Source: Bacteroidota bacterium
GTDB lineage: Bacteria; Bacteroidota; Bacteroidia; Bacteroidales; GWA2-32-17
Assembly (NCBI GenBank): GCA_037441645.1
Contig: JBBIRU010000026.1
Span: 13,435 to 77,434, forward strand
Direction of reading: 5' to 3'
Length of the DNA: 64,000 bases
Made by a program: the position numbers and the translations under genes. Shown in pieces: positions 35,182 to 62,840 of the stretch; within the stretch, counting starts at the first letter, position 1, and each line of letters begins with the position of its first letter. The notes beneath the pieces were generated by a model. That model saw only the letters and a list, made by a program, of their open reading frames with translations. It did not search any database and was not told where the DNA came from.

Positions 35182-35832
35182 CTAAATCAGGTTGTTTTTT
35201 ATTGCCTTGTTCACCAGGTCGGCTGTATTCTTTGCCTGTACCTTCTTCATTATATTTGTCCTGTGAATAGCCACAGTTTTTACCGATATGTTTAATTCGG
35301 TAGAGATCATCTTATTACTATGCCCTTCAACAATAAGTTTAAGGACTTCCTGCTCCCGTGGCGACAATTTATAAGTAACCAGAGCAGGAAGAGGCATGAT
35401 CTTGTTTTGCCTCATCTCATTTACTATTATGTATGAAATGCGTTCGCTGAAAAAGTTCTTTCCTGCATGTACCTGTTCAATAGCTTTTACAAGTTCTTCT
35501 ATATCCCCGTTTTTATGAAGATATCCGTTCGCTCCGTTTTCAATGGCCGAATAAATATATTCTGCTTCTTCGTGCATGGTAAAAATGATGACCTTAACCT
35601 GTGGCTTATCGCACTTGATTAGTTTTAACAGCTCAATACCATTTATATCCGGAAGTGAAATATCAATTAACACAATATCAGGAGAACATGCCTTGAATTT
35701 TTTTAAAGCTTCTTCTCCGTTGGGCGCTTCTCCTGCTACCTCTATATTACCTTGCTGAGCCAGTATTGAAGTAATGCCCGATCTTACAATACTATGATCA
35801 TCAACAATAAGAATTGTAATTTTGTTTTTCAT
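35182..35832 (-). CDS. NarL/FixJ-family response regulator (REC plus LuxR HTH)
   Basis: IVDDH, LIDISLP, FTMH; LSPREQEVLKLIVEG.SNK.IS.EL.ISVKTV..HR. Confidence 0.95.
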   Translation of the reverse strand: MKNKITILIVDDHSIVRSGITSILAQQGNIEVAGEAPNGEEALKKFKACSPDIVLIDISLPDINGIELLKLIKCDKPQVKVIIFTMHEEAEYIYSAIENGANGYLHKNGDIEELVKAIEQVHAGKNFFSERISYIIVNEMRQNKIMPLPALVTYKLSPREQEVLKLIVEGHSNKMISTELNISVKTVAIHRTNIMKKVQAKNTADLVNKAIKNNLI

Positions 35833-35842
35833 AATTCATTTA

Positions 35843-38404
35843 TTATAACGTAATATAAACCGATGTAAACTTGTTCTTCTTTGAATTGATCCTGACATTT
35901 GCTCCTATCAGTTTAGCCCGTTCAAAGATATTGTTTAAACCAAAGCCGGAGCGGATCTTGAGAGCAGTTTCGTCGATTCCCTTTCCATTATCAATAATTT
36001 TCATTGTAATAACAGTTGAAGTGTAATAAATAATAATATAGATTTTACTGCACTCTGCATGAGTTATTGCATTTCGTAAAGCTTCCTGTGCAATACGGTA
36101 AAAAGTCAGTTCAACGTCGCTTGGTAAACGCTCAGAATATTGATTCGTCCTCAGAATTATGTCTTTTGTAGTTTCACTGTTTAGTTTTATCAGTTTCTTT
36201 AATCCGGCAATCAGGCCAAAATCAACCAATACCGCCGGCGAAAGGTTATTTGAAATTCGGATAGCCTCATTTAATGAAGTCTTCAGAAAATCACTCACTT
36301 TGTAAATATCATTCATCTCGATAATACTTTTTATCTTCATTTCCGTGAGTGACATATCTGCCACCGAAAGAATCTGGCATAAGCCATCATGAATTTCACG
36401 GGCGATTCTTTTTCGTTCATTTTCCTGTCCCTGCACTAAAGATCGTTTGATTTCCTTATTCATCCGGTTCTCGCTCTCGTGCAGCTTTTCTTCGGTCTGC
36501 TTGCGTTCGGTAATATCCTGGTGGAAAGCCAGGAAATACTGCTTGCCGTCAATATTGATAAGACTTGCGGTGACACTGAGAGGAAAGATGTGCCCATCCT
36601 TATGATAATGCTCTACCTCGAAACGGACGACTTCACCGGCATGTATTCTGCGAGCAATATCAGCACGGTCTTCCATAGTATTCCCCTTTAGTATATCCAG
36701 TTCTCTGATATCTAAGCTGTTAAATTCGTCCAGATTATAGCCGTGCATTTCGGCAAAGGCCCTGTTGGTCTCGGATAACCGGCCTTCCGGTGTCATAATC
36801 AGGAGGCCTTCGTTTGCCTGGTCGAATAAGTTGCGGTAGCGCCTCTCACTCTCCCACAATGCCTCTTCGGCCTGTTTGCGCTCTGTTATGTCTGTGAAAG
36901 TTACCACAGCGCCTGCCAGACTTCCCCTTTCATAGATAGGACTGCTTGCATACTCAACGTAAAAACTTGTGCCATCTTTTTTCCAGAATACCTCGTTGGA
37001 AGCGCGATGCACCTTTCCGTCCCTGAAGGCGGCGAGGACCCGGCACTCTTCCTGCGGATAGGGGCTTCCGTCGGCTTTGGTATGATGCCAGATACTGTGG
37101 CTGTGAAGTCCGATAAGCTCTTCCGGTTCGTAGCCCAGTGTTCTTGCTGCAATGGGATTTACAAATGTGTGGTGTCCCTGCAAATCCAGTCCCAGGATTC
37201 CTTCTGCAACGGAGTTTAGGATAAGTTCTTTTTGCAGGTTGAGAAAAGCTAATTCTTCTTCTGCTTTTTTGCGCTCGGTGATGTCCCTGTTACTTACGCG
37301 CCGGCCATAGTAATTACCCCTGTTATCAAAAACAGGTCTGCATATATGACCAACGTATGCTATAGTGCCGTCTTTCTTTATTATTTTAAAATCAAGTTCG
37401 TCAATTTCATGTTGATGCTCTATGGAATGTACTTTTTTTAAATGATTATTCAATAATTCTGTATAATCGGGATGAATAATCTTTTTCAGGAGCAGACTGT
37501 CTGATAAGAACTCTTCAGACTTATATCCGCTGATCCTTTCGCATGAAGGAGACATGTAAATAATCTCACTATCCATTCCCTCCCAGTATTCCCAGTCATA
37601 AGCAAAATCGGCAACCGTTTTAAACCTGATTTCGTTTTCTTTCAGTGTCTTTTCTGCCTGTTTGCGTTCGGTTATGTCGCGATGAAAGCCCAGGATATAC
37701 TTCTGATCTCCTATGGTAACAAGGCTTGCCGATACTTCAAGGGGAATCGTTTGACCATCCTTGCAAAAATGCTCGACTTCTATAGTCATCGATTCTCCGG
37801 CCAGCAACCTTTGCATCCGTTCAGGTATAAATGGTCTGGATTTCGGTGTGTCAAGGTCTTCGAAATTCTTTTTCATCAGTTCATCAACGGTGTACCCGTG
37901 CATACTGGCGAAAGACTTGTTTATTTCAATGATGGTGCCATCGGCGGTAAACTGAAGGATTCCGTCTTTTGCACTTTCAAATAAAGCGCGGAACTTTTGT
38001 TCGCTTTTCCGTAAGGCTTCTTCCATACATATGTGCTCTTCGGTTTTGTGCAGCAATTCTTTTGTTTGCCTGAGCTTTATGGATAAAAACGTGGTTACTC
38101 CTGCTACGCCCACAAATATTAAGATCCTGATCAATGCCTGTATGATAACTACTGAATCTTTTGTAAATGAAATGATGAGAAAAAAATAAATGAATGTAAG
38201 AAAGACTGAAAAAACAAAACCTTTCTTTGTATAGTTAATACAGGCAATGATGATAGGTATATAAAAGAGGTTCTGAAAAATAATAAACCATCCGGACATA
38301 AGGCAATAAATGCTTATGATAATGGCTGTCAGCGTTGTTACGGCAATTGCAACAAATGGCAATGAGTTTAACCGGATGTTTTTAAGAAATTTATTGTTCT
38401 CCAC
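35843..38404 (-). CDS. Membrane histidine kinase, four PAS/PAC domains, HisKA_3
   Basis: N-terminal TMs, four DITERK linkers, ERKRIAREIHDGLCQ, QEALRNA, DNGKG, GFGL. Confidence 0.93.
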   Translation of the reverse strand: MENNKFLKNIRLNSLPFVAIAVTTLTAIIISIYCLMSGWFIIFQNLFYIPIIIACINYTKKGFVFSVFLTFIYFFLIISFTKDSVVIIQALIRILIFVGVAGVTTFLSIKLRQTKELLHKTEEHICMEEALRKSEQKFRALFESAKDGILQFTADGTIIEINKSFASMHGYTVDELMKKNFEDLDTPKSRPFIPERMQRLLAGESMTIEVEHFCKDGQTIPLEVSASLVTIGDQKYILGFHRDITERKQAEKTLKENEIRFKTVADFAYDWEYWEGMDSEIIYMSPSCERISGYKSEEFLSDSLLLKKIIHPDYTELLNNHLKKVHSIEHQHEIDELDFKIIKKDGTIAYVGHICRPVFDNRGNYYGRRVSNRDITERKKAEEELAFLNLQKELILNSVAEGILGLDLQGHHTFVNPIAARTLGYEPEELIGLHSHSIWHHTKADGSPYPQEECRVLAAFRDGKVHRASNEVFWKKDGTSFYVEYASSPIYERGSLAGAVVTFTDITERKQAEEALWESERRYRNLFDQANEGLLIMTPEGRLSETNRAFAEMHGYNLDEFNSLDIRELDILKGNTMEDRADIARRIHAGEVVRFEVEHYHKDGHIFPLSVTASLINIDGKQYFLAFHQDITERKQTEEKLHESENRMNKEIKRSLVQGQENERKRIAREIHDGLCQILSVADMSLTEMKIKSIIEMNDIYKVSDFLKTSLNEAIRISNNLSPAVLVDFGLIAGLKKLIKLNSETTKDIILRTNQYSERLPSDVELTFYRIAQEALRNAITHAECSKIYIIIYYTSTVITMKIIDNGKGIDETALKIRSGFGLNNIFERAKLIGANVRINSKKNKFTSVYITL

Positions 38405-38831: not shown

Positions 38832-40907
38832 ATGAAAGAAGTTTATAGAAAAGTTCTGAAAACAGTAAAAAAAATACTTCGGATATTAATTATTATTATA
38901 TGCCCTGTAACAGTGTTTTCCCAGGTGCCATTAAAATTTGAAAAAGAGCATGACAAAGCAATAATATCAACCATTTTTTCCCCGGACAGTAAAACAATTG
39001 CCTGCCTAACAGCAGACAAAACAATTAAAATCTATAATTCACAATCCGGAGACTTAATAACAACGCTGGATGATAAAGGCGAAGGCAATGTTAGTATGGC
39101 TTATAGTCCCGATTCTAAATTCTTAATCAGTGCATGTTTTGACAAAACGATCAAAATCTGGGATGTGGTAAATGGCAAGCTGGATAGTAAACTTAGCGGA
39201 CATCTCCAGCCGTCGAGAAGTGTTTGCTATAGTTCGGATGGGAAATTTATTGCGAGTGGCGGAGCCGATAATACTCTTAGAATCTGGTATGTGCCCGGTA
39301 AACTCAATTTTAAAACTTTTGAGGGACATAAGCAAAGTATAAGGTCAATTGCTTTCAGCCCCGACGGGCTTTTTATTGCCAGCGCAGGCAACGACTTAAG
39401 ACTTAAAATCTGGAACTTTGTCTCCGGCACTGAAGTTTTTTCAATAAAAGCAGCCGACTATCCCATTGAAACAATAAGTTACAGTCCGGATGGAAAGTAT
39501 ATTGCCACAGCAGGACTGGAAAATAATATAAAAATATGGGATGCTAAAAACGGAACACTTTATAAAACCCTGAAAGGGCATATCAATTGTGTGTATTCTA
39601 TTGCATTCAGCCCTGACGGTAAGTACCTGGCCAGTGGTGGCGACGATAACATCGTAAAAATATGGAATATAGACGCCGGTACATCAGTTAATGACCTGAA
39701 AGGGCATAGCAAAGGTATTCGAACCGTTTCTTTTTCTCCGGACGGTAAGATGCTGGTTACCGGGGGGCTTGATAAACACATGAGAGTTTGGGACATGAAA
39801 TTTCTTAATGTGAATCCGGTTCTTAAACAACAAAAATTTGTTGACAAGTCTGCAAATGGAACCGGTATTTCTTTTGGGAAAACTATATCTGACGTAAACA
39901 CCTCTTTCTCCAGGCAGTATACGGTAACTGTTTGCCTTGATAATAACACATGTACCAATTACAGGCTGTTTCTGAACAAGTCGGTGTATTCAAAAACAAA
40001 TAATCAGACAATCGAATTGGTAAAACCGAAAAGTATTTCTAACACAAAGGACAATAAATTGGCCATAACATATGACATTACTCTTGAAGGCGCAGATAAT
40101 GAAATTCAATTCTATGCTGAAACTTCAGATCACTTGGGATATATAATGTCCAGGCCTTTATATGTTAAGTTCTTTGATATAAGCGATTTTCAAAAGAATG
40201 CACGGTTGCAATCTTTAATTATAAGCCCGAAGAATTATAGCGACCAGAAACTTAATATAGGCTTTGAAATCAATATTAATTTTGAAACAGAAAACACAAA
40301 CAGATTCAAGGACTTATGCCTGAGTCAGCAGGGGAAATTATTTAAATCAGTTTCCCTCCGATGCCCTGATGATAATAAATATTTATCCCGGAAAAGCATT
40401 ATCAGAACTAGCGATTCACTGGCAACTGTATCAAAAAAGCAGGATGTTTTTCTTATCATTATTTCTGGTTTATTTGTTAAAAATTCCGGTAATGAGATTT
40501 TCTTTATCGCTCCTAATTCCAGTTTAAAGGACTTTAAAACTGATCTTGTGGGTATAGAGTCATTTTGCAGTTCAATAAACAAATCACCGGCATTCAGCGG
40601 AATCATAATCGATCCGTCGCGAAAGTTACTTCAATACCCTGACGGGTATTCCCAGGTTGACAGTAAAGAAATATTCGATTATATTACTAAAAGCTTAAGT
40701 ACAAAAAAAGATTGTGCGGTTTTAGTAGTTTCTACCAATGAGTATCTGCAACTTTTTGATCTGCTTTTTAATGGTTTTTATCCCTTTAACGATACCGACA
40801 AAAACGAAATGATTGATTTCAATGAACTAAATAACTTTTTTACACAGTTATACAAAACATATTTTCTTAATAAAGGCAGATTTGTTCCATTATATCTTAC
40901 TTATTGA
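38832..40907 (+). CDS. Exported WD40-repeat protein with C-terminal degenerate caspase-like domain
   Basis: Signal peptide, ~7 GH...FSPDG...D.TIKIW repeats; C-terminal DVFLIIISGLF / IIIDPSR correspond to caspase SGHG / DAC positions. Confidence 0.8.
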   Translation: MKEVYRKVLKTVKKILRILIIIICPVTVFSQVPLKFEKEHDKAIISTIFSPDSKTIACLTADKTIKIYNSQSGDLITTLDDKGEGNVSMAYSPDSKFLISACFDKTIKIWDVVNGKLDSKLSGHLQPSRSVCYSSDGKFIASGGADNTLRIWYVPGKLNFKTFEGHKQSIRSIAFSPDGLFIASAGNDLRLKIWNFVSGTEVFSIKAADYPIETISYSPDGKYIATAGLENNIKIWDAKNGTLYKTLKGHINCVYSIAFSPDGKYLASGGDDNIVKIWNIDAGTSVNDLKGHSKGIRTVSFSPDGKMLVTGGLDKHMRVWDMKFLNVNPVLKQQKFVDKSANGTGISFGKTISDVNTSFSRQYTVTVCLDNNTCTNYRLFLNKSVYSKTNNQTIELVKPKSISNTKDNKLAITYDITLEGADNEIQFYAETSDHLGYIMSRPLYVKFFDISDFQKNARLQSLIISPKNYSDQKLNIGFEININFETENTNRFKDLCLSQQGKLFKSVSLRCPDDNKYLSRKSIIRTSDSLATVSKKQDVFLIIISGLFVKNSGNEIFFIAPNSSLKDFKTDLVGIESFCSSINKSPAFSGIIIDPSRKLLQYPDGYSQVDSKEIFDYITKSLSTKKDCAVLVVSTNEYLQLFDLLFNGFYPFNDTDKNEMIDFNELNNFFTQLYKTYFLNKGRFVPLYLTY

Positions 40908-41102: not shown

Positions 41103-41157
41103 ATAGTGGAATTTTTAGGGCTGTTGGAAGTTGTGTGCAACAAAGAGTAAATATATT

Positions 41158-41472
41158 ATGCAAACAGAATTCAATGTTAAAAAATTAAAATCAGGGGATT
41201 GCAAACTCGAAGTAAAAGGAGACCTGGTTATTAAACACAGTATTGATTTTAAGAACCAACTTTCCGGGTGTGTCGGGGGATGTAAGAACCTTGTAATATC
41301 TCTTGAAGAAATTACTGCTATAGATGTTACCGCTATTCAGATGATTCAATCCCTTAGGAACGAATTTAATGGCAGCTCAAAAAATCTCACTGTTATTTCT
41401 CCATCCAATGAAAGTATCCTGATTTCTTTGCGCAATTCAGGATTACTTAAAGTCATAACTAATAATGTATAA
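41158..41472 (+). CDS. STAS-domain protein (anti-sigma antagonist-like)
   Basis: LEVKGDL, LEEITAIDVTAIQM, LRNSGL; first gene of che cluster. Confidence 0.85.
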   Translation: MQTEFNVKKLKSGDCKLEVKGDLVIKHSIDFKNQLSGCVGGCKNLVISLEEITAIDVTAIQMIQSLRNEFNGSSKNLTVISPSNESILISLRNSGLLKVITNNV

Positions 41473-41485
41473 CAGATGTCTTTCA

Positions 41486-41857
41486 ATGCCTAGATTTATT
41501 CTTGTAATAGATGATTCGGAAAGCATCAGGGAACTGGTTGCATTGACTTTGGAATCTGCAGGTTTTAAAGTTAAAAAGGCTGTGGATGGACAGGATGCTC
41601 TTCATTTTCTTTTCGATCACGATATCAGGTTGGTTATAACCGATTTACACATGCCAAATATGGATGGGATCCAATTAATCGGAGAAATTCGGAAAATTGA
41701 CAATCATTTAACCACTCCTGTTCTTCTGCTTACAACAGAATTATCTGCCGCGAAAAAAGAAGAAGCCCGAATGGCTGGTGCCACGGGATGGATTGTGAAA
41801 CCTTTTAACCAGCAAAAATTACTGGAAATAGTCAGAAGACTGATAGGAAATAATTAA
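41486..41857 (+). CDS. cheY: Single-domain response regulator CheY
   Basis: VIDDS, ITDLHMPNMDG, LLTTE, GATGWIVKPF; precedes cheA. Confidence 0.9.
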   Translation: MPRFILVIDDSESIRELVALTLESAGFKVKKAVDGQDALHFLFDHDIRLVITDLHMPNMDGIQLIGEIRKIDNHLTTPVLLLTTELSAAKKEEARMAGATGWIVKPFNQQKLLEIVRRLIGNN

Positions 41858-42037: not shown

Positions 42038-44044
42038 ATGGACAACATGCACGCAATATTTATGGCAGAAGCTCAGGAACTGATTTCAGAACTTGAGAAA
42101 TCACTGCTTATGCTTGACGATGATAAGGAAAACAAGGACGGGATTGCTTCAGTATTTCGTACAATGCATACGTTAAAAGGATCGGCCAGTATGTTTGGCT
42201 TCGAGTCCCTGAGCACATTAACACATAAGATCGAAACAATCTATGATAATATCCGCAATGGAAAGAGAAAACTCACACATAATATCCTGAGCGTAACTCT
42301 CAGAAGTGTTGACCACCTGAAGAAGCTGCTGGAAGATGCTGAACTTACAGATGAATCAACAAAAAGAGAACATGAATTACTTTGTCAGAAAATTGAGGAA
42401 CTTTCGAAAGAGGAAACGGAAACCGTTAACCCCGTACAGTCAGCTGAAAAGGGTAGTCCCGGCAATGAAGCAAGTACCTATTACATTCTTTTCAACCCCA
42501 AAGCAGACATTCTCAAAAACGGAACAAATACCCTGTATCTTTTGGACGATTTACTTGCTATGGGAGAAGGAATTACCCTTCCATTCTTCTGCCAGATGCC
42601 TTCCTTTAAAGACATTATACCCGACACCTCCTATACCGGTTTTGAGACCATTTTATGTACTGATAAATCGCAGGAGCAGATTCGCGAAGTATTTATTTTT
42701 GTAGAAGGAGGGTGTGAGCTGAAAATTAAAAAAATAGGGACCGGGAATCTTCTTAAAATACCTTTAGTAATAGAAAATCTGCAAAGAAAACACAACCTTT
42801 CCTTACAGACCGGAGAAAAGCAGATTTTATCCGTTTTACTTGCATCTTCCAATGTCCAGACACAAGTAACAGCAGCAAAAACAGCCTCCAACGTTCGTGT
42901 TTCATCATTCCGTCTCGATGAACTCATGAATCTTGTGAGCGAACTTGTGACAACCCAGGCAAGTCTCAGCCTTCTCGCAGAAAACTCATCTTTTCCCGAA
43001 CTGACTTCAATTGCCGAAAATATTGAAAAAATTACCCGCAGACTCCGCGATAACGCTTTTACAATGAGTCTGATTCCTATTGAAAGCCTGGTAGTCCGTT
43101 ACCAGAGGCTTGTAAGGGATCTCTCAAGAGAATTGAAAAAAGATGTTGTAGTTCTTACAGAAGGAACTGAAACGGAAATTGAGAAATCTATTATCGAAAG
43201 ACTAACCGATCCACTGTTACATTTGTTACGGAACTCTCTTGATCATGGAATTGAATCTGAGGATGTACGTCTGCGTTTAGGTAAGCCAAAACAGGGTACT
43301 TTGATGCTTAAATCATATTATTCAGGAGCCAATGTAGTTGTCGAAATCAGCGATGATGGTGCCGGGATGGACCCTGAAAAACTACGGAAAACAGCAGAAG
43401 AAAAGGGATTGATAACTCCCAATGCAGTACTGAGCAAAAAAGAACTTCTTAACCTTATTTTTCTTCCCGGATTTTCTACTGCCAGAACAGTAACAGGTAT
43501 TTCAGGCAGGGGCGTGGGCATGGATGTAGTGAAAAGAAAAATTGCCGAAATAAAAGGTGAAGTGGAGGTCGATTCCCAAATCAATAAGGGTACCAAAGTT
43601 ACGATTAAACTACCTCCCAGTCTATCCATCATTGATGGTTTATTGATACAGGTTCACAACACCCGTTTTATTATTCCGTTGTCTGCTGTCGACCAGATTT
43701 TTGGAATTACCTGTCAGCAGGTAAGACGTTCTTTTAACAACGTAATTATTTTGGCCGGCGAAGCTATTCCTTTTTACTCCTTGCGCGAAGAATTCGGTTT
43801 TGAAAACATTCAGAATGATAACGATATTTTGCAGGCAGTAATAGTAAGATATGAAAACAACCGCGTGGCCCTGATTCTGGACAAAGTTATCGGTGAGTAC
43901 CAGGCTGTTCTGAAACCGTTAGGTAAATTATTCCGCCACCAGGAAAGTATCTCCGGTGCATCTATTCTTGGCGATGGCGGTATCGCACTTGTATTGGACA
44001 CAAACAAATTTATTCACTTGTCAACTGTTATAAGAACACAATAA
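42038..44044 (+). CDS. cheA: Chemotaxis histidine kinase CheA
   Basis: Hpt FRTMHTLKG, HLLRNSLDHG, DDGAG, GFSTA..SGRGVGMDVV, C-terminal CheW domain. Confidence 0.97.
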   Translation: MDNMHAIFMAEAQELISELEKSLLMLDDDKENKDGIASVFRTMHTLKGSASMFGFESLSTLTHKIETIYDNIRNGKRKLTHNILSVTLRSVDHLKKLLEDAELTDESTKREHELLCQKIEELSKEETETVNPVQSAEKGSPGNEASTYYILFNPKADILKNGTNTLYLLDDLLAMGEGITLPFFCQMPSFKDIIPDTSYTGFETILCTDKSQEQIREVFIFVEGGCELKIKKIGTGNLLKIPLVIENLQRKHNLSLQTGEKQILSVLLASSNVQTQVTAAKTASNVRVSSFRLDELMNLVSELVTTQASLSLLAENSSFPELTSIAENIEKITRRLRDNAFTMSLIPIESLVVRYQRLVRDLSRELKKDVVVLTEGTETEIEKSIIERLTDPLLHLLRNSLDHGIESEDVRLRLGKPKQGTLMLKSYYSGANVVVEISDDGAGMDPEKLRKTAEEKGLITPNAVLSKKELLNLIFLPGFSTARTVTGISGRGVGMDVVKRKIAEIKGEVEVDSQINKGTKVTIKLPPSLSIIDGLLIQVHNTRFIIPLSAVDQIFGITCQQVRRSFNNVIILAGEAIPFYSLREEFGFENIQNDNDILQAVIVRYENNRVALILDKVIGEYQAVLKPLGKLFRHQESISGASILGDGGIALVLDTNKFIHLSTVIRTQ

Positions 44045-47600: not shown

Positions 47601-47664
47601 AAGTGGTGTGCAAATAAACCTGCATCACAACGACAAGAAAGATGCAGACTTTGAGCAATTCTGA
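44620..47664 (+). CDS. Methyl-accepting chemotaxis protein: 2 TM, periplasmic helical sensor, multiple HAMPs, cytoplasmic Cys-rich PAS, signalling domain, C-terminal DFEQF
   Basis: [38 protein letters not shown]; repeated ISKGD.PP.IT.NY.GDFNEIK HAMPs. Confidence 0.96.
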
Positions 47665-51347: not shown

Positions 51348-52466
<1,119 letters not shown>

Positions 52467-53823: not shown

Positions 53824-54795
53824 ATGTTGAATGCACTTGATTATGCCGGGCTGACTGAAGAGAATAATTGCCTGAAAAAGGAAATTGAAAACATGAAAAT
53901 AATGATGAATGAGTTGGAGCAAACCAACTCTAATCTTATTTCAGCAACATGGAGAGAAAGAGAGCTTAAAAAAATACTGACCAATACTCTTTCCGAACTT
54001 GAAAAATCGAAAAGTGTTATTGAAAAACAAAATAAAAAAATCTCTGAAAGCATCAATTATTCTAAGAGAATTCAGGATGTTATTCTGGCCGATGAGAATT
54101 CTGTCAGATCCATACTTCCTCAGTCTTTCATATTATACATTCCAAAAGATATTGTAAGTGGCGATTTTCCATTTTTTTACCAGGATGGAAACGTCTGTCA
54201 CCTTGCGGCAGTTGATTGTACCGGGCATGGCGTTCCGGGTGCCATGCTGTCGCTTATCGGTCACCTGATCCTGAATGATATTCTTTCCAAGGGAGGTAAG
54301 AAAAAAACCTCTGAGGTTCTGTGCCTGATGCATTCTATGATTGTCAAAACATTAAAGCAAAATATTGAAGGTAACGATGCCTCAGACGGGATGGATATTG
54401 CCATGTGTGAAATAAGTCCCGGGGAAAATAAAGTAAGATTTGCAGGCGCTCATCGTCCGTTATACCAGATCCGTAATAATGAATTGCTCGAATACAGCGG
54501 GTCGCGCTTACCTATAGGCGGAACACAATATAAAAAGAAAACAACCTATACAGATTACGAAATTGACGTACAACCCAACGACTTATTCTTAATCTTTTCT
54601 GATGGATTCCAGGACCAGTTTGGAGGCCCCGAAAATGAAAAATATGGTTCGCTTCGACTCCAGAACTACCTGTTCGAAAACAGGCACTTCTCAATAGACG
54701 AATTAAAAAACGGTCTGAGAAATGAGTTTTTAACATGGAAAGGCGACGGAAAACAAATGGATGACATATTATTTATTGGGTTTAAAATACCTTGA
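53824..54795 (+). CDS. Soluble SpoIIE/PP2C Ser/Thr phosphatase (SiaA-like catalytic domain) with coiled-coil N-terminus
   Basis: SGDF, DCTGHGVPGA, DGMD, SDGFQDQFGG, DDI; no TM. Confidence 0.9.
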   Translation: MLNALDYAGLTEENNCLKKEIENMKIMMNELEQTNSNLISATWRERELKKILTNTLSELEKSKSVIEKQNKKISESINYSKRIQDVILADENSVRSILPQSFILYIPKDIVSGDFPFFYQDGNVCHLAAVDCTGHGVPGAMLSLIGHLILNDILSKGGKKKTSEVLCLMHSMIVKTLKQNIEGNDASDGMDIAMCEISPGENKVRFAGAHRPLYQIRNNELLEYSGSRLPIGGTQYKKKTTYTDYEIDVQPNDLFLIFSDGFQDQFGGPENEKYGSLRLQNYLFENRHFSIDELKNGLRNEFLTWKGDGKQMDDILFIGFKIP

Positions 54796-54798
54796 CAT

Positions 54799-55368
54799 AT
54801 GGAAAAAGAAAATATATCTCATATGGAATTTGTACTTCGCACATTTAAAATGATGCAAAGTAACGGTATTAAACTGGTATATGAAGGCGAAATAAACCAG
54901 TCGCTTACAAAAGTGTTGGCTGCCCTCACCGAAAAAAAACTGGAGGATGGCAATGAAGATTTTTTGATTACCAGGACGGTTTACCACGTTATGATTGAGT
55001 GCCTCCAGAACATTTGTAAACATTCGGACAAAAGTCAGGCAGATGCAGGCAACTCAATGAATGATGGAATGTTTATGATTTGTGAAGAACAAAGTAACTA
55101 TTCTGTAACAACAGGGAACGTTGTTACGAGTGAAAATGCTGAAAAAATGAGGGGTATTCTTGATTCAATCAATGCTTTGACAAAAGAAGAGGTAAAAGCA
55201 GCTTATATGAAACAAATGAGGGAGGGGCAGCTTTCTGAAAAGGGTGGAGCCGGATTGGGTTTTCTTGATATTGCCAAAAAGACCGGGAATAAATTCCAAT
55301 ATCATGTAGAGACAATAAACAATGAAAGATGTTTCTTTGTTCTGAAAACTGTAATTTCAAAAATTTAA
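54799..55368 (+). CDS. SiaB-family protein kinase
   Basis: YEGEINQ, IECLQNICKH, TTGN, KGGAGLGFLDIAKK; between the PP2C and SiaC-like genes. Confidence 0.85.
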   Translation: MEKENISHMEFVLRTFKMMQSNGIKLVYEGEINQSLTKVLAALTEKKLEDGNEDFLITRTVYHVMIECLQNICKHSDKSQADAGNSMNDGMFMICEEQSNYSVTTGNVVTSENAEKMRGILDSINALTKEEVKAAYMKQMREGQLSEKGGAGLGFLDIAKKTGNKFQYHVETINNERCFFVLKTVISKI

Positions 55369-55372: not shown

Positions 55373-55747
55373 ATGAACGCACTAATAATTGAAGCAACTG
55401 ATGAAACCCCCCAGATTAACCTGGACCCAATTACTAACCATTTGTTTTTTAGCGGAAAGTCTCTTCCGGAAGACGTCAGAAGTTTTTATAATCCTGTCAT
55501 GGAATGGATCGATGAATTCACTTCTACCCGAAGAGACTCCACTATAGTTGAGTTTAAAATGGATTACTTCAACACCGCATCTTCAAAAATAATTCTTGAT
55601 ATTCTGCTCAAATTAGAAAACATCCATCTCGAAGGAAATGCTTTGACGATAAAGTGGTTATACAGAAGTAAAGACCTTGACATGAAAGAGGCGGGTGATG
55701 AATATGCCGAAATTGTAGAGGTGCCATTCCAGCACATTCCCTATTAA
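55373..55747 (+). CDS. SiaC-family (DUF1987) phosphoprotein
   Basis: TDETPQI, SGKSLPED..FY.P, YFNTASSK, W.Y...D.DM.E.G. Confidence 0.9.
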   Translation: MNALIIEATDETPQINLDPITNHLFFSGKSLPEDVRSFYNPVMEWIDEFTSTRRDSTIVEFKMDYFNTASSKIILDILLKLENIHLEGNALTIKWLYRSKDLDMKEAGDEYAEIVEVPFQHIPY

Positions 55748-55769: not shown

Positions 55770-57581
55770 TTATTCCGGAACCTCCCACAATATTAATTCT
55801 TTGTCCTTTGAACCGCTGATAAGTTTTTTACCATCAGGTGAGAAGGAAACAGATGTTACGCTCATTCTATGCCCTGCAAAAGTTTTCAGTTCGTTGCCCG
55901 ACTCTGCATCCCACAATTTTACTGTAATATCATTTGATGCTGATGCAATCCGTTTTCCGTCAGGGCTGAATGCAACACATCGTATGAATTCAGGATGACC
56001 TTTCAAAACCATGATTTGCTTTCCGCTTTCTACATCCCATTCAATCAGCATTTTTCCTCCGGTTACAAGTTTCTTTCCGTCAGGGCTGAAAGCTATGGAG
56101 TAATAATATTCCGCCTGATCTTCCATTTTTCTCACCTCTTTTCCTGTTTCGGTATTCCAGATCGAGATCAGGTTTTCCCTGCTTATTATTGCAACAAGCT
56201 TACCATCCCTGGAAAACACAGCATGATTTACAAACACTGAATTTTTTAAAGTACTTACCACTTTTCCGGAACCGGCCTCCCATATTTTGGCGGTAGAATC
56301 GCCACAGGCGCTTAGTATTTTTTTCCCATCCGGCGAGAAAGAAACTTCAGAATTAAAACCATATCCTGCCCGGATCACCTGTATTTCATTCAATGATTCT
56401 CCATCCAGGCATTTAATAGTGCTGTCGAGAGAACCTGAAACAATTTTTTTTCCGTCTGCAGAATAGTTAACAGAATAGATAAAGTTGTTATGGGCTTTGG
56501 ATGACAATAATTCTTTTCCGGCAGAAATATCCCATATTATAAGAACACCATCGTCATCAGACGATACAGCCCTGCTTCCGTCGGGCGAATACGCTACAGA
56601 TAATACCTGTCCCGTATGACCACTTAAAACAGATAGTTTTTTTCCGGTTTCAATACTCCATATCTTAATCATCGAATCCTTACTTCCGGAAACAACATAT
56701 TTCATGTCAGGTGAAAAGCAAACAGATGTCACGCAGGATTTATGGCCTGTAAAGCAAATTATTTCATGGAGGTTTTCCGCATCCCATATCCTGACAGTAT
56801 TATCTTCACTTCCCGAAACCAGGAACTTTCCGTCAGGTGAAAACTTTACAGAAGTTACCGGTCCGGTATGATTTTCACGCGAAATAATCTCACGTCCGTT
56901 CTCTGCATTCCATATTCTTATCGACTTGTCGGAACTTGCCGAAGCAACTCTTTTCCCGTCGGGAGAAAACGATACACTATTTACCGAACCAAAATGCCCT
57001 GTAAGAGTTAATATGGACTGTTTTCTGGCTACATCCCATATTTTGAGATTCATATCGCTGCTTCCTGTTACCATCTTTGTGCCTGCAGCATTCACATCTA
57101 CAGAGAGTACCGCCCCGGAATGTCCCGAAAGCATTGCTTCGGCAGAACCGTCTTTCATATTCCACAAACCTATGGTGTTATCGCTGCTAGCTGTTACAAA
57201 AGTTTTTCCATCCGGGAATACAGCAACGCAATTCACTTTAAGAGAATGCCCTTTAAAGTCTTTTACAGCCTTTCCCGTTTTTACTAACCAAAGCTTTGCG
57301 GTTTGATCATTGCAGCCGGTAATAACATTTTTTCCGTCGGTAGTAAAGATGGCGTCATTAACAGGAAAATAATGGCCGGCAAAAGTCATGATTTCCAGTC
57401 CGTCCGCGACATTCCACAACCTGGCGGTTTTATCTTCTCCTGCCGATAGAAGCTGGGTGCCATCAGTCGAAAAGCATACGGATAAAACTCCCCCTTTATG
57501 TCCTGTGATAGTTTTTACACATTCCTGGGCATGGGTAATATTTATTATTCCTAATAATAAAAAGGGAAGAATTTTTTTCAT
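55770..57581 (-). CDS. Exported WD40-repeat protein (~14 repeats)
   Basis: Signal peptide ending THA|Q from ATG 57581; repeated GH...V.SV.FSPDG...S.D.T.K.W. Confidence 0.92.
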   Translation of the reverse strand: MKKILPFLLLGIINITHAQECVKTITGHKGGVLSVCFSTDGTQLLSAGEDKTARLWNVADGLEIMTFAGHYFPVNDAIFTTDGKNVITGCNDQTAKLWLVKTGKAVKDFKGHSLKVNCVAVFPDGKTFVTASSDNTIGLWNMKDGSAEAMLSGHSGAVLSVDVNAAGTKMVTGSSDMNLKIWDVARKQSILTLTGHFGSVNSVSFSPDGKRVASASSDKSIRIWNAENGREIISRENHTGPVTSVKFSPDGKFLVSGSEDNTVRIWDAENLHEIICFTGHKSCVTSVCFSPDMKYVVSGSKDSMIKIWSIETGKKLSVLSGHTGQVLSVAYSPDGSRAVSSDDDGVLIIWDISAGKELLSSKAHNNFIYSVNYSADGKKIVSGSLDSTIKCLDGESLNEIQVIRAGYGFNSEVSFSPDGKKILSACGDSTAKIWEAGSGKVVSTLKNSVFVNHAVFSRDGKLVAIISRENLISIWNTETGKEVRKMEDQAEYYYSIAFSPDGKKLVTGGKMLIEWDVESGKQIMVLKGHPEFIRCVAFSPDGKRIASASNDITVKLWDAESGNELKTFAGHRMSVTSVSFSPDGKKLISGSKDKELILWEVPE

Positions 57582-57853
57582 TTGAGTCAGTTTCATAAAT
57601 TTCAATTCTAAATCAAAGTAAATTACTATAATCAGAATGCAACTCCTTAATTAAGACTATAATACTATAGAAGGCAGGTGAATTCATATGCACAACAAAG
57701 ATAATATACATGGAATTCTTTGCCAAAGAAGTATAATGTTATTATGGATAATCTGATCTCATGAGAGATAGTACATTCAAAAATTCGTAATGAATATCAT
57801 TTCTGCCTTTATTAATCTAAATCACAACACTCCGGAGTGATTATTGTGTGTCT

Positions 57854-57896: not shown

Positions 57897-57919
57897 GTTT
57901 CAATTTAATTATTTTTTAG

Positions 57920-58111
57920 CACTGTTGTCCGACTAAAATATTTTACATATCACGAATCAACCTGTTTTCAATATTTACAAATATTTCGCCGCCTACGGGG
58001 CTTTATTTTGAATCTTTAATTTTTTTCTGCAAATATGTCGCCTCTACGAGGCTTAAAAAAAGTGCCGTAGGTACGACATATATAATTATAAAAATTAGTC
58101 GGACAAAAGTG
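57920..58111. mobile_element. 192-bp MITE with 17-bp terminal inverted repeats and 9-bp target-site duplication
   Basis: Left CACTGTTGTCCGACTAA, right TTAGTCGGACAAAAGTG (1 mismatch); ATTTTTTAG at 57911-19 and 58112-20; no ORF. Confidence 0.9.
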
Positions 58112-58358
58112 ATTTTTTAGATAAATATAAGAATAACAAAAAAATATGTTTATTTATTAAAATTCAAAACTGTTTCTAAATAGTCCGCCTGAATAGTAAT
58201 ACCAAAGTGAAATTTATAAGAGTCCAAACCGGACGAATTATAATTTCTACTTTGGTTTATGCCGATTGATTTATACTTATACACATTTATACTTATTGGA
58301 TTAAAATATAAATCACATCGATATAAATACTAATTCAATTAGACTATCTGCAGAATAA

Positions 58359-58805
58359 CTAACGCGATTGTTTCTCGGAAGTCATGATTACTGCACACCC
58401 TTCTTTTCCATCTAAGAAGTAATATGTCAGATAGTAAATGCCTGATGCCCTGCATACAAACTCAAACCCGCTAAGTCCCTTTTTTGTAGAAGGATCATAG
58501 GTGCTTCCTATCAGAGTATTTGTCGAAGACTGATATAACTGAAAAATCAATTGCCCGTCATAATCGGAAGCGTTACAAACCACAATTTTATATTTTGTAT
58601 CCTGGTTAAGTACAAGAACATTTTTACCCATAAGAGGAGCATCTTTCTTACTCTTCTTAAAACGAACCTGGTAATGTTTCAGAAATTTGTAATCTCCGAT
58701 TTCAGGGTAACAAACTTCAATTAATTGATCATCACATTGCCCTTTTACGATTTTTACGGTAAAAACCAGGGCAAAAATCAAAATGACTGTGAGAAAATAT
58801 TTCAT
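58359..58805 (-). CDS. Small exported Cys-containing protein, third gene of the ABC operon
   Basis: Signal peptide then QCDDQLIEVC; 148 aa, five Cys in mature part. Confidence 0.8.
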   Translation of the reverse strand: MKYFLTVILIFALVFTVKIVKGQCDDQLIEVCYPEIGDYKFLKHYQVRFKKSKKDAPLMGKNVLVLNQDTKYKIVVCNASDYDGQLIFQLYQSSTNTLIGSTYDPSTKKGLSGFEFVCRASGIYYLTYYFLDGKEGCAVIMTSEKQSR

Positions 58806-58828: not shown

Positions 58829-59728
58829 TTAATTAATAATTTTATTCCTGATGGAAGCTATTACATTGCCAATACTCTTGAATATGGTTTCATCTATGTT
58901 TATGGTACTGGTACTGTTATCGATTATTACCATCTTGCCGTCAACTTTCTTCATGGTAGGTTCAACATAGTTGTATGTAATGATAACTTTATCGAATTCC
59001 TTTTTCAGGTTTTCTGAATCCTTTAATAATTCTGCAAAATCGGGGTCATTTTTAAAAGCCCCCAATAAAATTATAATATTATCGAGAACTACCTTTTGCT
59101 CACCGACCCTGTCGTAAATCTTTTGCTTTTTTTCAACGGCATCAATGCTGGTCGCCAGGTAAAGATTTTCAATCCATGTTCCGTATGCAATCAGTACGGC
59201 AATATTACTTCGCTTTTCATCTATCAGGTAATGAGTCATTCTATCGAAACTGGAATTCGTTATAAACAGGATTGAATCGACATTTTTCTTGTTTTCCGAA
59301 AGACGGTTCAATGTTTCTAAATTAAAAAACTGACCAACTTTCAGATCATTTGCCAGGTCGTTCACATTTTTAAGGTAAGTCAATGTAGAAATGGTACGTT
59401 CATAAATATTCATGTGAACAAGGTCAGATCCGTAAGTTCCTAAGTTCAGGGCTTTCTTGAGGTTAGTATTGTACTTGCTTACATTAGAGGAAGGAACCAG
59501 CAAATCCGAATTATAAACTACTCCCGATTGTTGCAGCAGTTCTGATAATTGCAACGGATTTGGAACAACGGTAATGAGTTGCCCGATGAGTTCATCATCA
59601 ACCATTTCATCCTTACTGGCAATGGAGTCATTAAGTAAATCCGTAGCATTATTCCTGGGTGCATTACCACAACCCATGACAAAGAATAAAAGGGCTAAAC
59701 AGATAGGATTCAAAATTATTTTTTTCAT
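58829..59728 (-). CDS. Helical lipoprotein of unknown function
   Basis: Lipobox VMG|C; KALNLGTYGSDL, GTWIENLY. Confidence 0.82.
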   Translation of the reverse strand: MKKIILNPICLALLFFVMGCGNAPRNNATDLLNDSIASKDEMVDDELIGQLITVVPNPLQLSELLQQSGVVYNSDLLVPSSNVSKYNTNLKKALNLGTYGSDLVHMNIYERTISTLTYLKNVNDLANDLKVGQFFNLETLNRLSENKKNVDSILFITNSSFDRMTHYLIDEKRSNIAVLIAYGTWIENLYLATSIDAVEKKQKIYDRVGEQKVVLDNIIILLGAFKNDPDFAELLKDSENLKKEFDKVIITYNYVEPTMKKVDGKMVIIDNSTSTINIDETIFKSIGNVIASIRNKIIN

Positions 59729-59732
59729 GCTT

Positions 59733-62700
59733 TTAATTAGTTAAATTATTAACTTTGGGTATCTTATTCTTATACATAGAAAAAGTATTACTTATTCGCA
59801 TTTTAATAAATGCTGTAAAAGTAAAAACTCTTTTAATGAGTTCAAAATACAGAGCAACATACATTACCACGGCAAAAAACCATAAAATAAGAATGTTAAA
59901 CCAGAAAGTAGGAATGCTTTGCCCGATAAAAGATTTTGCAGGAGCAAGAAAATGAGTCCTGAAATTGAAGAAAGAGGGGTGCTGAGGATCAAGATATATC
60001 GGATCAACCTTCTGTACATAATGGTTTCCTATTCTTACCAGTTGATTACTTAAATAAGTATTCCTGGCAAAGCTTCCCAGGTACTTGTTATAATATCCGT
60101 CATAAAACTGCTGGTACTGCTTTGTTTTTTCAGCAGTTCTTTGCATTTCTGAAAGGATATGGTCTTTTTCCTCGTTGACCGTTTTAAACTGGTTTTTATA
60201 ATGTTCCTGTAAACGATCAATATACGAAAGCGTACTGTCTGCTGTCTCCATGGTAAAACTTCCCCGTGAGATCGGCTCAATACCTGTAAAAGGAATGCCT
60301 GGTACGATTGCCGGTTCCCTGGAAAGTTCATTGTACAATAACTCAAGGTTATCCTTTGATATCGTCTTTTCCGACCTGTACTTTTCTACTATTCCTTTAA
60401 TTTCGGGTAGCAGATAAACGTTATGATAATTTATAGTACTTTCAAGTTTCTCGTAATTATAAAACAGTCTTTCGTAATCGTTATTCACAAACTGGTTTAC
60501 CACAAGCGCTTCAAAAGCCCAGCGCGAAGGCATTAATTCTGCTAAAACCGGGACATTTTCACTACCGCCGCCAATTAACCGGTTAATTTTATCGAAGCTG
60601 AACATGGCCCCTGATAATACCATCTGCGGAATGATCAGAAAAGGTATCAGTATATAAATGGTAACGGCAGAATCAAAAGCAGAAGAAATGTTCAGTCCCA
60701 GGATATTTGCAAATGCAGCCATGGAGAAAAAAATACACCAGTATTCAAAGTACATCCCTTTAATCTCTAAAACATAATTGCCTATAATGACAAAAAGAAA
60801 TGATTGAATAGCCGAAAGAAGAAACAATATCCCTATTTTAGAAAACAGGTAACTACTCCGGCTCAGGTTCAGAAATCTTTCCCGTTTAAGAATTTTTCTG
60901 TCCTTAAAGATTTCCTCGGCGCTGACCATTAAGCCAAGGAAAATAGCCACAATGGTACACATAAACATATAAGGAATAATGTTGTCGTTATCCCTGTATA
61001 CATATGAATCAGAAGCCGGATCGCTGATGTAACGAAGTATAAAGGCGAGTATGTATCCGATCAGTGGCGCTTCTAAAAGGCTGATGATAAGATACTGTTT
61101 GTTAGCTAGCTTGGAGAATAAATCCCGCGCAAAATATGTTTTAAGCTGCTGAAACCAGGAAGGCATTTTATGAGTCTCGGGCAAACCGGAAAACCTGGTT
61201 TTGTTTATATTCCTGTTATTCCTGTAATCTTCGTATCGTAAAAACCATTCCCCGGGCGTAACCTTACGGTTATCTGTATATTTTCCGTAATCATCGAGAA
61301 TTTTTGCTTCCAGTATATTAAAAATACTTTCAGGGTTTACATTTCCGCAAGAGGAACATTCCCCGATATCGCTGTTAATCTGGTTGTCATGCCTTTTAAA
61401 ATACATCACTGCTTCAACAGGATTACCATTATATACAGGATATCCGCCAACATCAATAATGATAATGCTATCGAACATCTTGAAAATATTTGAGGAGGGC
61501 TGGTGAATGACAGTAAATATAAGCTTGCCCTTTATTGTCAATTCACTCAATAACTCCATAACATTTTCAGAATCCCGTGAAGACAGGCCCGAAGTTGGTT
61601 CGTCCATAAACAAAATGGCCGGTTCACGTATCAGTTCAAGACCAATATTTAAACGTTTTCTCTGGCCTCCACTTATTTTTTTACTTAACGGACTCCCTAC
61701 TTTTAAATCCCTGATATGACTCAATCCCAAACTGTTTAACACTCCAAGCACCTGTTTGTTAATCTGTGAATGGGAAAGATTCCTGAACACAAGTTTGGCA
61801 TTATAGTATAAGTTCTGATAAACCGTCAGTTCCTCAATAAGAAGGTCGTCCTGGGGAACATAGCCAATAATGCCCTTAAGTTTATCTCCATCCTTATGAA
61901 GGTTAATGCCATTAATCAGTACTTCTCCTTTTGAGGGGCTTTCCGACCCGCAGAGCACATTCAGTAATGTTGTTTTGCCGGCGCCGCTGGAACCCATTAT
62001 TCCGACCAGTTTACCGGATTGCTCGTACAGGTTTATGTCGATCAGGCCATTATTTCCATTTGGAAAGCAAAAGGAAAGGTTATTTACCTCAAAAGAAACC
62101 CGGTTTATGGAAGAATCCTGCATGAATTGCTGAACAACGTCGGTATATAAGCCGGGCTTGCCTTTTGGGGGTTTTACAATACTCCCGCTGGCAAAAATAT
62201 ATATCCGCTTATCATTAATTGGCAATCCATTCATCAGAACCTCATCCACTCCCACATACCGGATAAAATACAGATCAACACCCGGTACCCTGAGAATTTG
62301 AATGTGTCCGTTTAAGCTGTTGGATTCTATATATTTACATGCCGGAGAAACACCTGTCCTGTCATTCTTTATTATCATAATATCAGAACAGGAGATAGCA
62401 GATACCACATCTTCCGTAACAAACTCTGTTATTGAATCAAATTCGCTCTTGCTGATATTAAATGTTTCGGCTACCGTATCAATAATAGCCATTCGCTGCG
62501 ACGTGAAATTCTTATCAGAATTAACCATTTCGAGCAAACGTACCAGAACAACAACTTTCTGTTTCTGTGAAAGAGTTTTGTTAATCTTCTTGCAAATACC
62601 TAAAGTTTTTACAGAGTCCTTTACAGAAGTTAGTTGTACCTCATCGCCTTCGGTCTTTTTTCTCTGATTGTCGCCAATAAAACTATCAAAAAGTCTTAAG

Positions 62701-62840
62701 TATTCTTTAACAGAACTGTCGTTTAGCTGGAGTTTTAAAAACATGTGAACATAGTCCCTTTCATTGGAAGAAAGACCTATGTCCTGCTTTGCAATTATAG
62801 CAAAGAGTTGCATTAGTGCTTTTAATATTTTCTCACTCAT
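59733..62840 (-). CDS. Single-chain ABCG-type transporter with TerB-like N-terminus, NBD, ABC-2 membrane domain and large extracytoplasmic loop
   Basis: GSSGAGKTT, YVPQDD, ISGGQRKR, FMDEPTSGL, VIHQPS; NBD precedes TMs; N-terminal ALMQLFAIIA helical domain. Confidence 0.9.
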   Translation of the reverse strand: MSEKILKALMQLFAIIAKQDIGLSSNERDYVHMFLKLQLNDSSVKEYLRLFDSFIGDNQRKKTEGDEVQLTSVKDSVKTLGICKKINKTLSQKQKVVVLVRLLEMVNSDKNFTSQRMAIIDTVAETFNISKSEFDSITEFVTEDVVSAISCSDIMIIKNDRTGVSPACKYIESNSLNGHIQILRVPGVDLYFIRYVGVDEVLMNGLPINDKRIYIFASGSIVKPPKGKPGLYTDVVQQFMQDSSINRVSFEVNNLSFCFPNGNNGLIDINLYEQSGKLVGIMGSSGAGKTTLLNVLCGSESPSKGEVLINGINLHKDGDKLKGIIGYVPQDDLLIEELTVYQNLYYNAKLVFRNLSHSQINKQVLGVLNSLGLSHIRDLKVGSPLSKKISGGQRKRLNIGLELIREPAILFMDEPTSGLSSRDSENVMELLSELTIKGKLIFTVIHQPSSNIFKMFDSIIIIDVGGYPVYNGNPVEAVMYFKRHDNQINSDIGECSSCGNVNPESIFNILEAKILDDYGKYTDNRKVTPGEWFLRYEDYRNNRNINKTRFSGLPETHKMPSWFQQLKTYFARDLFSKLANKQYLIISLLEAPLIGYILAFILRYISDPASDSYVYRDNDNIIPYMFMCTIVAIFLGLMVSAEEIFKDRKILKRERFLNLSRSSYLFSKIGILFLLSAIQSFLFVIIGNYVLEIKGMYFEYWCIFFSMAAFANILGLNISSAFDSAVTIYILIPFLIIPQMVLSGAMFSFDKINRLIGGGSENVPVLAELMPSRWAFEALVVNQFVNNDYERLFYNYEKLESTINYHNVYLLPEIKGIVEKYRSEKTISKDNLELLYNELSREPAIVPGIPFTGIEPISRGSFTMETADSTLSYIDRLQEHYKNQFKTVNEEKDHILSEMQRTAEKTKQYQQFYDGYYNKYLGSFARNTYLSNQLVRIGNHYVQKVDPIYLDPQHPSFFNFRTHFLAPAKSFIGQSIPTFWFNILILWFFAVVMYVALYFELIKRVFTFTAFIKMRISNTFSMYKNKIPKVNNLTN

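Follow-up and report, generated by a model that had tools for sequence, protein, structure and literature searches.

A Bacteroidales locus joining a chemosensory array, a SiaB/SiaC-type switch and an ABCG-type exporter

What does a chemosensory array control in a bacterium that has no flagellar genes? In many bacteria, F7/F8-type arrays have no part in steering flagella, and the question arises again in a 64,000-nucleotide stretch of a Bacteroidales genome (contig JBBIRU010000026.1; hereafter the window). Here, 22 genes at positions 35182-62840 (about 28 kb) bring together a che array, a PP2C-SiaB-SiaC switch and an ABCG-type ATP-binding cassette (ABC) exporter. Open reading frames (ORFs) and Pfam/NCBIfam profile searches agreed with a preliminary description of this DNA, whose 22 genes were all present as described; the lipobox of the lipoprotein and the signal peptides were judged by eye. 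We lean towards reading the block as one composite locus, in which a signal would pass from CheA to a phosphorylated receiver (REC2-P), then to a PP2C phosphatase, to SiaC and to the exporter. The first two links of this chain are suggested by sequence and gene order, and the link from SiaC to the exporter by gene neighbourhood and one co-folding model. A chain from His/Asp signalling over a Ser/Thr partner switch to export had been proposed before, and we still infer it as the best reading. The best explanation of the locus as a whole is that it is a che-fed variant of a widespread operon, in which a GAF-PAS-PP2C sensor with CheR/CheB-type enzymes drives a SiaB-SiaC-exporter module.

The genome background argues for an output other than flagella. 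Neither FlhA (PF00771) nor FliG (PF01706) had a match in the source genome (98 contigs, 99.7% complete), and both were matched in four flagellated control genomes; a flagellar output is therefore ruled out. An output through cyclic di-GMP is ruled out as well, since no GGDEF match was found in the whole genome by a search that did match in control genomes. These results support the non-flagellar pathway of the preliminary description. The genome does encode the gld proteins GldJ and GldM and one T2SSE-family ATPase. The window cheA is its sole match to the H-kinase_dim family, and it codes for two methyl-accepting chemotaxis proteins (MCPs). Elsewhere in the source genome (G000), a second, Wsp-like che cluster (G000:C29:26000-40000, L032) encodes CheW, CheR (497 amino acids, aa), CheW, MCP, CheA (774 aa) and CheB, and a 798-aa kinase stands where the GGDEF output would be.

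The che core lies on the plus strand. It starts with an anti-sigma-factor-antagonist-like STAS gene (41131..41472; Pfam STAS 32.6 bits, TIGR00377 match below its cut-off) that overlaps by 8 bp with the gene of CheY1, a single-domain receiver (41465..41857) that is 54-57% identical across Bacteroidales che clusters. CheA (42038..44044), with Hpt, dimerisation, HATPase and CheW-like domains, and CheW (44062..44568) follow, and then a membrane MCP of 1014 aa with the architecture 4HB-HAMP-PAS-3xHAMP_2-MCPsignal (44620..47664), the CheR methyltransferase (49016..49867), CheD (50795..51343) and CheB, with REC and methylesterase domains (51390..52466); cheZ and cheV are absent from the cluster. Compared with Escherichia coli Tsr, a 36-heptad receptor (36H), the MCP signalling domain has seven residues fewer in each arm, symmetrically, and is thus of the 34-heptad (34H) type. 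The closest solved relative of the window CheR is the pentapeptide-binding CheR of Salmonella (1e-51), with no gaps through residues 116-269. The C-terminus of the MCP, DFEQF, fits the CheR-tethering pentapeptide pattern x-[HFYW]-x2-[HFYW] as given in PMC7184735.

These features point to a known class. F8 systems are described as combining 34H pentapeptide receptors with an in-cluster CheR (PMC11253619), and the F8 cluster che2 of Shewanella oneidensis holds CheA, CheY, CheW, CheR, CheD, CheB, two MCPs and an uncharacterised anti-sigma-factor antagonist (PMC9855816). By its 34H receptor, pentapeptide, STAS gene, CheD and in-cluster CheR the window core fits an F8-like assignment. A STAS gene before cheY-cheA, followed by cheW, receptor, cheR, cheD and cheB, is shared by the window with F8 clusters (Pseudomonas syringae cluster II, S. 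oneidensis che2) and with their sister class, the ancestral F7 stages 1 and 2 (Vibrio cholerae cluster III, Pseudomonas aeruginosa che2); the 34H pentapeptide receptor and in-cluster CheR are those of F8, and the PAS/poly-HAMP input part of the window receptor resembles Aer2. The F7 stage 1 layout is given as STAS, cheY, cheA, cheW, an aer2-like receptor, cheR, cheD and cheB, then a second STAS and a serine phosphatase, with a function that is called unclear (PMC7184735). The preliminary description had called the whole block a candidate undescribed system, which is not supported for the core: it fits the published F8 class, which typically bears a STAS gene (PMC9855816), and che genes together with STAS and serine phosphatase genes are published for F7 stage 1 and for the Shewanella Che1/CrsR-CrsA system (PMC7184735, PMC9855816). 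Unlike F8 and F7 systems, the window belongs to a host without flagellar genes, and it adds a histidine-kinase-like protein that lacks the phospho-acceptor His, the gene orf362, REC2, CheC and the WD40 protein WD40a; unlike in F7 stage 1, its downstream switch is SiaB/SiaC rather than a STAS protein. Related che clusters have a wide but patchy distribution. Of 40 further genomes sampled from the order, 7 encode a CheA orthologue with an identity of 45% or more; none of seven other genomes of the same genus does. CheB relatives with 60-76% identity come from 80 loci that represent several phyla. In one such cluster, of a Roseivirgaceae genome (L090:1263-2631), cheY is directly preceded by the gene of a 250-aa ParA/MinD-like ATPase and an ORF of 204 aa, which may be an array-positioning pair.

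Five further plus-strand genes lie downstream of cheB. REC2 (52678..53040) is a second single-domain receiver, with the Asp, Ser/Thr and Lys signature residues recognised by eye. It is followed by a CheC-type CheY-P phosphatase (53151..53798; Pfam CheC 27.9 bits against a cut-off of 22; NF041093 match with E 7e-10, below cut-off). A motif scan found [DS]x3Ex2Nx(20-24)P twice in this protein, at residues 11 and 111; we take two copies of [DS]x3Ex2Nx22P to be the active-site motif of the CheC type. The next gene encodes a short PP2C of 323 aa (53824..54795), in which about 95 aa of coiled coil precede a SpoIIE/PP2C domain with a SiaA-like catalytic part. Its residues 46-322 align to SiaA 384-657, and it scores 172 bits with the SiaA model NF038263 (cut-off 700). 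The SiaB-family protein kinase (DUF6272; 54799..55368) scores 161.2 bits with NF038262 (cut-off 85) and 83 bits with the equivalog model NF038264 (cut-off 225), and is thus not a SiaB equivalog. The SiaC-family phosphoprotein (DUF1987; 55373..55747) matches PF09345 with 126 bits (cut-off 24.5). Its Thr68, within the motif YFNTASSK, is invariant in 32 of 32 sequences and is presumably the phospho-acceptor.

The window shares three components with SiaABCD of P. aeruginosa: a PP2C, in its SiaA-like catalytic domain, a kinase of the SiaB family and a SiaC in which the Thr is conserved. The SiaABC-like switch of the preliminary description needs a correction for SiaA: the short PP2C lacks a SiaA-type sensor and has a coiled coil in place of the SiaA membrane/HAMP part. 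The source genome also differs in having no SiaD and no GGDEF match; SiaD is the partner of SiaC in P. aeruginosa, and in the window the predicted partner is the ABC exporter. Unphosphorylated SiaC of P. aeruginosa acts by binding a partner protein (PMC8457831). Further genes of these families occur in the source genome: G000:C11:66900-70200 encodes a CheR-like protein, a 278-aa ORF, a methylesterase-only CheB, SiaB and SiaC, with no ABC gene nearby and about 9 kb from GldK/GldM genes, and six tandem PP2C paralogues are located at G000:C43:8200-19900, with at least 14 PP2C matches genome-wide.

The exporter genes are on the minus strand and converge on siaC. The exporter itself (59733..62840) has 1035 aa, with a TerB-like and FHA-like N-terminus followed by ABC_tran and ABC2_membrane domains. 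Over residues 272-753, covering nucleotide-binding domain (NBD) and membrane domain, it aligns with ABCG2 and ABCG1 (E 4e-39 and 3e-37), and it matches TIGR00955 with 249 bits, below the cut-off of 736. Then come a lipoprotein of 299 aa (58829..59728; lipobox VMGC), a secreted Cys-containing protein of 148 aa assigned to no family (58359..58805) and, as the last gene of this strand, WD40b (55770..57605), with 611 aa, a signal peptide and about 14 WD40 repeats. In a confident model of the lipoprotein (predicted local distance difference test, pLDDT, 86.5), a bundle of helices is accompanied by a small beta sheet. This fold had no match in the PDB at E <= 0.001, and a search of the Atlas returned only uncharacterised Bacteroidota clusters.

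To place this module, we looked at its relatives in a sample of 151 genomes of the order. SiaC is present in 68 of the 151 genomes, with up to 23 copies per genome, and the ABC family in 69 (about 45%). In 40 genomes, the best ABC match was examined together with 8 kb of flanking sequence on each side, which gave 39 full-length ABC ORFs; for 36 of them the locus also contains an ORF upstream. In 30 of these 36 loci, SiaC is the gene immediately before the ABC gene on the same strand; SiaB and PP2C adjoin in 30, and CheR- and CheB-like genes are found further upstream in 23. The lipoprotein gene directly follows the ABC gene in 35 of the 39 loci and the secreted-protein gene comes next in 31, and both are thus conserved partners of the exporter. 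For instance, the operon of a complete genome (L119) reads CheR, CheR, CheB methylesterase, membrane-GAF protein, GAF-PAS-PAS-PP2C (869 aa), SiaB, SiaC, ABC, lipoprotein and secreted protein. The PP2C catalytic domain, SiaB, SiaC, ABC (50-56% identical), lipoprotein and secreted protein of this canonical operon are orthologous to those of the window, and the window PP2C shares 41-48% of its residues with the catalytic part of the canonical GAF-PAS-PAS-PP2C of about 870 aa. By these comparisons, the exporter trio and PP2C-SiaB-SiaC of the window are a rearranged version of an operon that is widespread in Bacteroidales. The canonical sensor half (CheR, CheR, CheB, GAF, GAF-PAS-PAS) is replaced in the window by a full che array with REC2 and CheC; in addition, the exporter half is inverted and WD40b has been gained. 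WD40 genes, which the preliminary description had counted among the parts of the system, were found in none of the 39 canonical exporter loci; they are lineage-specific additions confined to the source family. Our literature searches found no published description of an operon of SiaB/SiaC, ABC, lipoprotein and secreted protein. The source genome has a second SiaB-SiaC/ABC/lipoprotein set on contig C23, where the TerB-ABC gene (G000:C23:40179-45642, 46% identical) has its own lipoprotein gene and converges on a SiaC-SiaB pair; another TerB-ABC paralogue (C42:37114-40152, 43%) has no SiaC within about 10 kb.

What appears to be new in the window is that the PP2C is missing its GAF-PAS sensor and that a full che array with REC2 and CheC stands in its place. 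The same arrangement is found in a sister genus and in two metagenome-assembled genomes (MAGs) of Roseivirgaceae. The former is represented by G009, an independent genome of another genus of the same family, in which a contig runs through cheB, REC2, CheC and the short PP2C in this order and then ends. The MAGs (L090 and L098) belong to another order and have cheB-REC2-CheC-PP2C-SiaB(-SiaC), where 3 to 25 bp separate the genes from CheC onward; their identities to the window are 63% for REC2, 44% for CheC, 47% for PP2C and 44% for SiaB, and 57% for SiaC (within L090 only). REC2 is 59-64% identical in L090, L092 and L098 and lies always directly 3′ of cheB, as in G009. In L057, che genes, a long PP2C, two SiaB, SiaC, an ABC gene (50% identical) and a NarL regulator are encoded on one strand, and in L109 a REC-PAS-PP2C fusion lies directly 3′ of cheB. 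The recurrence in L090, L098 and L057 together with the L109 fusion supports a receiver-controlled PP2C that would be fed by CheA. The L109 fusion supports the design and not orthology, because its REC domain has no BLAST similarity to REC2 or CheY1. In a tree, the window SiaC groups with the che-linked SiaC of L090 (96/74, long branch), inside an exporter-linked clade (93/89). As the sub-modules recur together in several lineages, their co-occurrence is more than chance. With che, Sia-type and exporter modules found together elsewhere (G009, the Roseivirgaceae MAGs, L057) and no flagellar motor in the genome, neither of the observations that the preliminary description had named as speaking against it was made.

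Several observations weigh against a single chain, and some of them favour a different view, in which array and exporter module are mere neighbours. The array would then signal through CheY1 (and STAS) to gliding and the type IX secretion system, to pili or to gene expression; REC2-CheC would be its adaptation branch, in the CheY-P/CheC/CheD manner of Bacillus subtilis; and PP2C-SiaB-SiaC-exporter would work independently. Consistent with this, the coupling is found in a minority of loci: among 24 Bacteroidota-type che loci that could be evaluated, with 3 kb or more of sequence beyond cheB, 21 lack REC2, CheC and PP2C in that stretch and have no PP2C/Sia module. L092 has REC2-CheC without PP2C, and CheD and CheC are a known adaptation pair. 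The canonical Sia-exporter operon is equipped with a sensor of its own and does not require a che array. Because GldJ, GldM and the T2SSE-family ATPase are present in the genome, CheY1 may control gliding or a pilus, and in the chain that we favour CheY1, STAS and the His-less kinase-like protein have no explained output. Moreover, the short PP2C itself carries no receiver domain, the REC domain of the L109 fusion shows no BLAST similarity to REC2, as stated above, and in L090 only housekeeping genes follow SiaC, about 6 kb of sequence being free of TerB-ABC. The ABC gene of the window neither adjoins siaC nor runs in the same direction, and WD40b and a repeat-filled spacer lie between them. 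On the other side, the window PP2C has lost the GAF-PAS sensor that is found in all 30 canonical PP2Cs and so needs another input, the gene order from cheB to SiaB(-SiaC) recurs in another order, L109 has its fusion directly after cheB, and che and Sia-exporter genes share one strand in L057. We therefore regard independent neighbours as rather unlikely, and a receiver-controlled switch within one composite locus as the preferred reading.

How could such a switch act on the exporter? SiaC (alignment of 32 sequences) and ABC residues 1-260 (40 sequences) were co-folded and scored 0.86, compared with 0.34 for the best of three controls. Of 80 solved complexes, 58 attained the mark, as did 2 of 110 mismatched pairs; these counts are a rough guide only, since our own alignments were used. 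Runs agreed in at least 98% of contacts, with a partner pLDDT of at least 92. In the predicted interface, SiaC residues 63-75 (including Thr68 and YFNTASSK) and 102-114 face ABC helices 70-84 and 115-126 of the TerB-like domain. A point against this docking is that a control which retained SiaC still scored 0.34. Alone, ABC residues 1-260 were modelled as a helical domain and a beta domain (pLDDT 88.3), and the fold matches of this head were FHA domains and a TerB-family protein, none at E <= 0.001. Residues 154-223 matched FHA domains with a prob of 0.96-1.00 and a TMt of 0.43-0.58 over 77-84 columns, again with no match at E <= 0.001, and by eye the usual phospho-Thr-binding residues look absent. 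Among the head matches was FHA-2 of Mycobacterium tuberculosis Rv1747 (6cah: prob 0.97, TMt 0.34, 48 columns), which reportedly is an FHA-regulated ABCG-type exporter. As in the window protein, the NBD of Rv1747 precedes an ABC-2 membrane domain, and N-terminal regulatory domains are tied to Ser/Thr phosphorylation; unlike Rv1747, the window head has a TerB-like and one FHA-like domain, and the predicted docking site is the TerB part. The co-folding model supports a docking of SiaC on the TerB-like head of the exporter through its phospho-threonine face. By analogy, phosphorylation of Thr68 would plausibly break this contact, as has been reported for the SiaC-SiaD contact (PMC8457831).

Taken together, these links would give the following mechanism. 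The F8-type array (STAS, CheY1, CheA, CheW, 34H receptor, CheR, His-less protein, CheD and CheB) would sense a signal and adapt by methylation. CheA would also phosphorylate REC2, with the lifetime of the signal set by the adjacent CheC phosphatase, and REC2-P would control the short PP2C. PP2C and the SiaB kinase would then set the phosphorylation of SiaC at Thr68, and unphosphorylated SiaC is predicted to dock on the TerB-like head of the exporter and to alter its activity. The exporter would work with its dedicated lipoprotein and the small secreted protein, joined in this lineage by a WD40 protein in the periplasm. A further, more tentative proposal is that the array has transport as its output: through CheA, a CheY-like protein with CheC and the PP2C/SiaB switch, SiaC would dock on or leave the TerB head, and the release of envelope or matrix material would track temporal changes of the signal.

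Two further published systems come close to this design. S. oneidensis Che1 with CrsR/CrsA is a che operon with a receiver-controlled PP2C/partner-switch module, in which chemosensory input is thought to feed a Ser/Thr switch (PMC9855816). CrsR is a single REC-PP2C-kinase protein and CrsA a STAS protein that controls RpoS, whereas REC, PP2C and kinase are separate in the window, its phosphoprotein is of the DUF1987/SiaC family and its likely target is a transporter. In Bacillus cereus RsbK/RsbM/RsbY, a CheR-type methyltransferase modifies the sensor that drives a PP2C partner switch (PMC4574943); this system acts on sigma B through RsbV/RsbW and, unlike the window, has no che array and no transporter. 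If the proposed chain holds, His/Asp signalling would pass through Ser/Thr partner switching to the direct control of a transporter. This would be a concrete output for F7/F8-type systems, whose function the literature calls unclear, and a new mode of ABC-transporter gating by a partner-switch protein. The locus lays out a plausible chain from receptor to effector in a genome without flagellar genes, ties the array to a module that is common in Bacteroidales, and names protein pairs that can be tested: CheA-REC2, REC2-PP2C and SiaC-TerB head.

Since the block comes from a metagenome bin, it could also be an assembly chimera, with unrelated pieces joined by repeats. Logan contigs of run X1 (possibly the source of the assembly and so not independent) include one that spans 44000-57882, with the SiaC/WD40b junction, and another that spans 58291-63199. 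Their breaks, at 57.9-58.3 kb and 63.1-63.4 kb, fall at short dispersed repeats with 10-22 copies in the genome, and one X1 contig links 58326 to 63282 on opposite strands. These points would fit a chimera. The single X1 contig across 44000-57882 argues against it, and so does G009, which keeps the same order in another genus. One G009 contig carries ABC (82% identical), lipoprotein (80%), secreted protein (72%) and WD40b (62%). A second carries the NarL regulator, PAS kinase, WD40a, STAS, CheY1, CheA (78%), CheW, MCP and orf362, and onward CheW, MCP, CheR, kinase-like protein, CheD, CheB, REC2 (89%), CheC (81%) and PP2C (84%), where it ends. This shared gene order indicates that the block is inherited rather than an assembly artefact; a chimera is largely refuted and in our view very improbable. 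Only 224 bp separate WD40b and the secreted-protein gene in G009, compared with 753 bp (57606-58358) in the window, where dispersed intergenic repeats, also of 10-22 genome copies, occupy 57900..58300. Repeats are located at 57606-58358, 63130-63433 and 33809-34128, and one family of about 300 nucleotides flanks the block on both sides, on the same strand and 86% identical. The opposite-strand link of 58326 and 63282 in one X1 contig suggests that the ABC-lipoprotein-secreted protein segment may undergo inversion between copies of the repeats.

At its other end, the block begins with a two-component pair on the minus strand: a NarL-type response regulator with REC and GerE domains (35182..35832) and, 10 bp from it, a cytoplasmic multi-PAS HisKA_3 histidine kinase (35843..38404). 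The preliminary description had placed the whole system under this pair; the two are linked by adjacency, which is kept in one sister genus. As master regulator, the pair would control the divergent WD40a-che-Sia operon and the exporter operon, and the whole block would be one regulon. Consistent with this, the pair is divergent from WD40a at a distance of 427 bp, it also accompanies the block in G009, where the regulator has 73% identity, and L042, L046, L048 and L057 have NarL-type regulators next to related che or exporter loci. The G009 kinase is only 34% identical, though, adjacency in two related genera may be plain inheritance, and by BLAST labelling none of the 39 canonical exporter loci has a NarL-type regulator. 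We consider such a regulon doubtful. From WD40a to SiaC the plus-strand intergenic gaps are at most 223 bp, and from STAS to SiaC at most 211 bp; no terminator-like site was found in any gap between STAS and SiaC. A scan for sigma-70 promoters gave 62 sites against a mean of 66.4 in shuffles, with a model that is ill-suited to Bacteroidota promoters.

The remaining genes are associated with the che core. The gene between cheR and cheD (49883..50782) encodes a histidine-kinase-like protein (DHp + CA) of 299 aa, for which Pfam reports HATPase_c only. It had been described as a kinase, and this is right for the fold, since histidine-kinase cores match over residues 19-285 and the ATP-binding boxes look intact by eye. 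It is not right for the phospho-His position of the H-box, which is Asn in the window protein and in 38 of 39 aligned sequences and Tyr in one. We can only guess at a role as receiver phosphatase or as Ser/Thr kinase for the STAS protein. Such a gene lies between cheR and cheD in 32 of 80 CheB-centred loci, mostly of Bacteroidota; this position is fixed for the family in F8-like clusters of Bacteroidota, and also in a few loci of Desulfobacterota and one of Chthoniobacteraceae. At E <= 1, Pfam gave nothing credible for orf362, the secreted protein, the lipoprotein, the C-terminal part of WD40a, the PP2C N-terminus and the C-terminal 235 aa of the ABC protein. The che-associated orf362 (47833..48921; 362 aa, helical/coiled-coil) matched neither Pfam nor NCBIfam. 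Its G009 counterpart, 56% identical, lies between MCP and cheW, and two relatives (21-25% identical) stand on either side of cheR in L057. WD40a (38832..40907, plus strand; 691 aa) has a signal-anchor-like N-terminus, about seven WD40 repeats and a C-terminal part of 350 aa. A 70% identical copy is the first gene of the che operon in G009, and a 48% identical paralogue is located at G000:C23:11507-13636 in the source genome.

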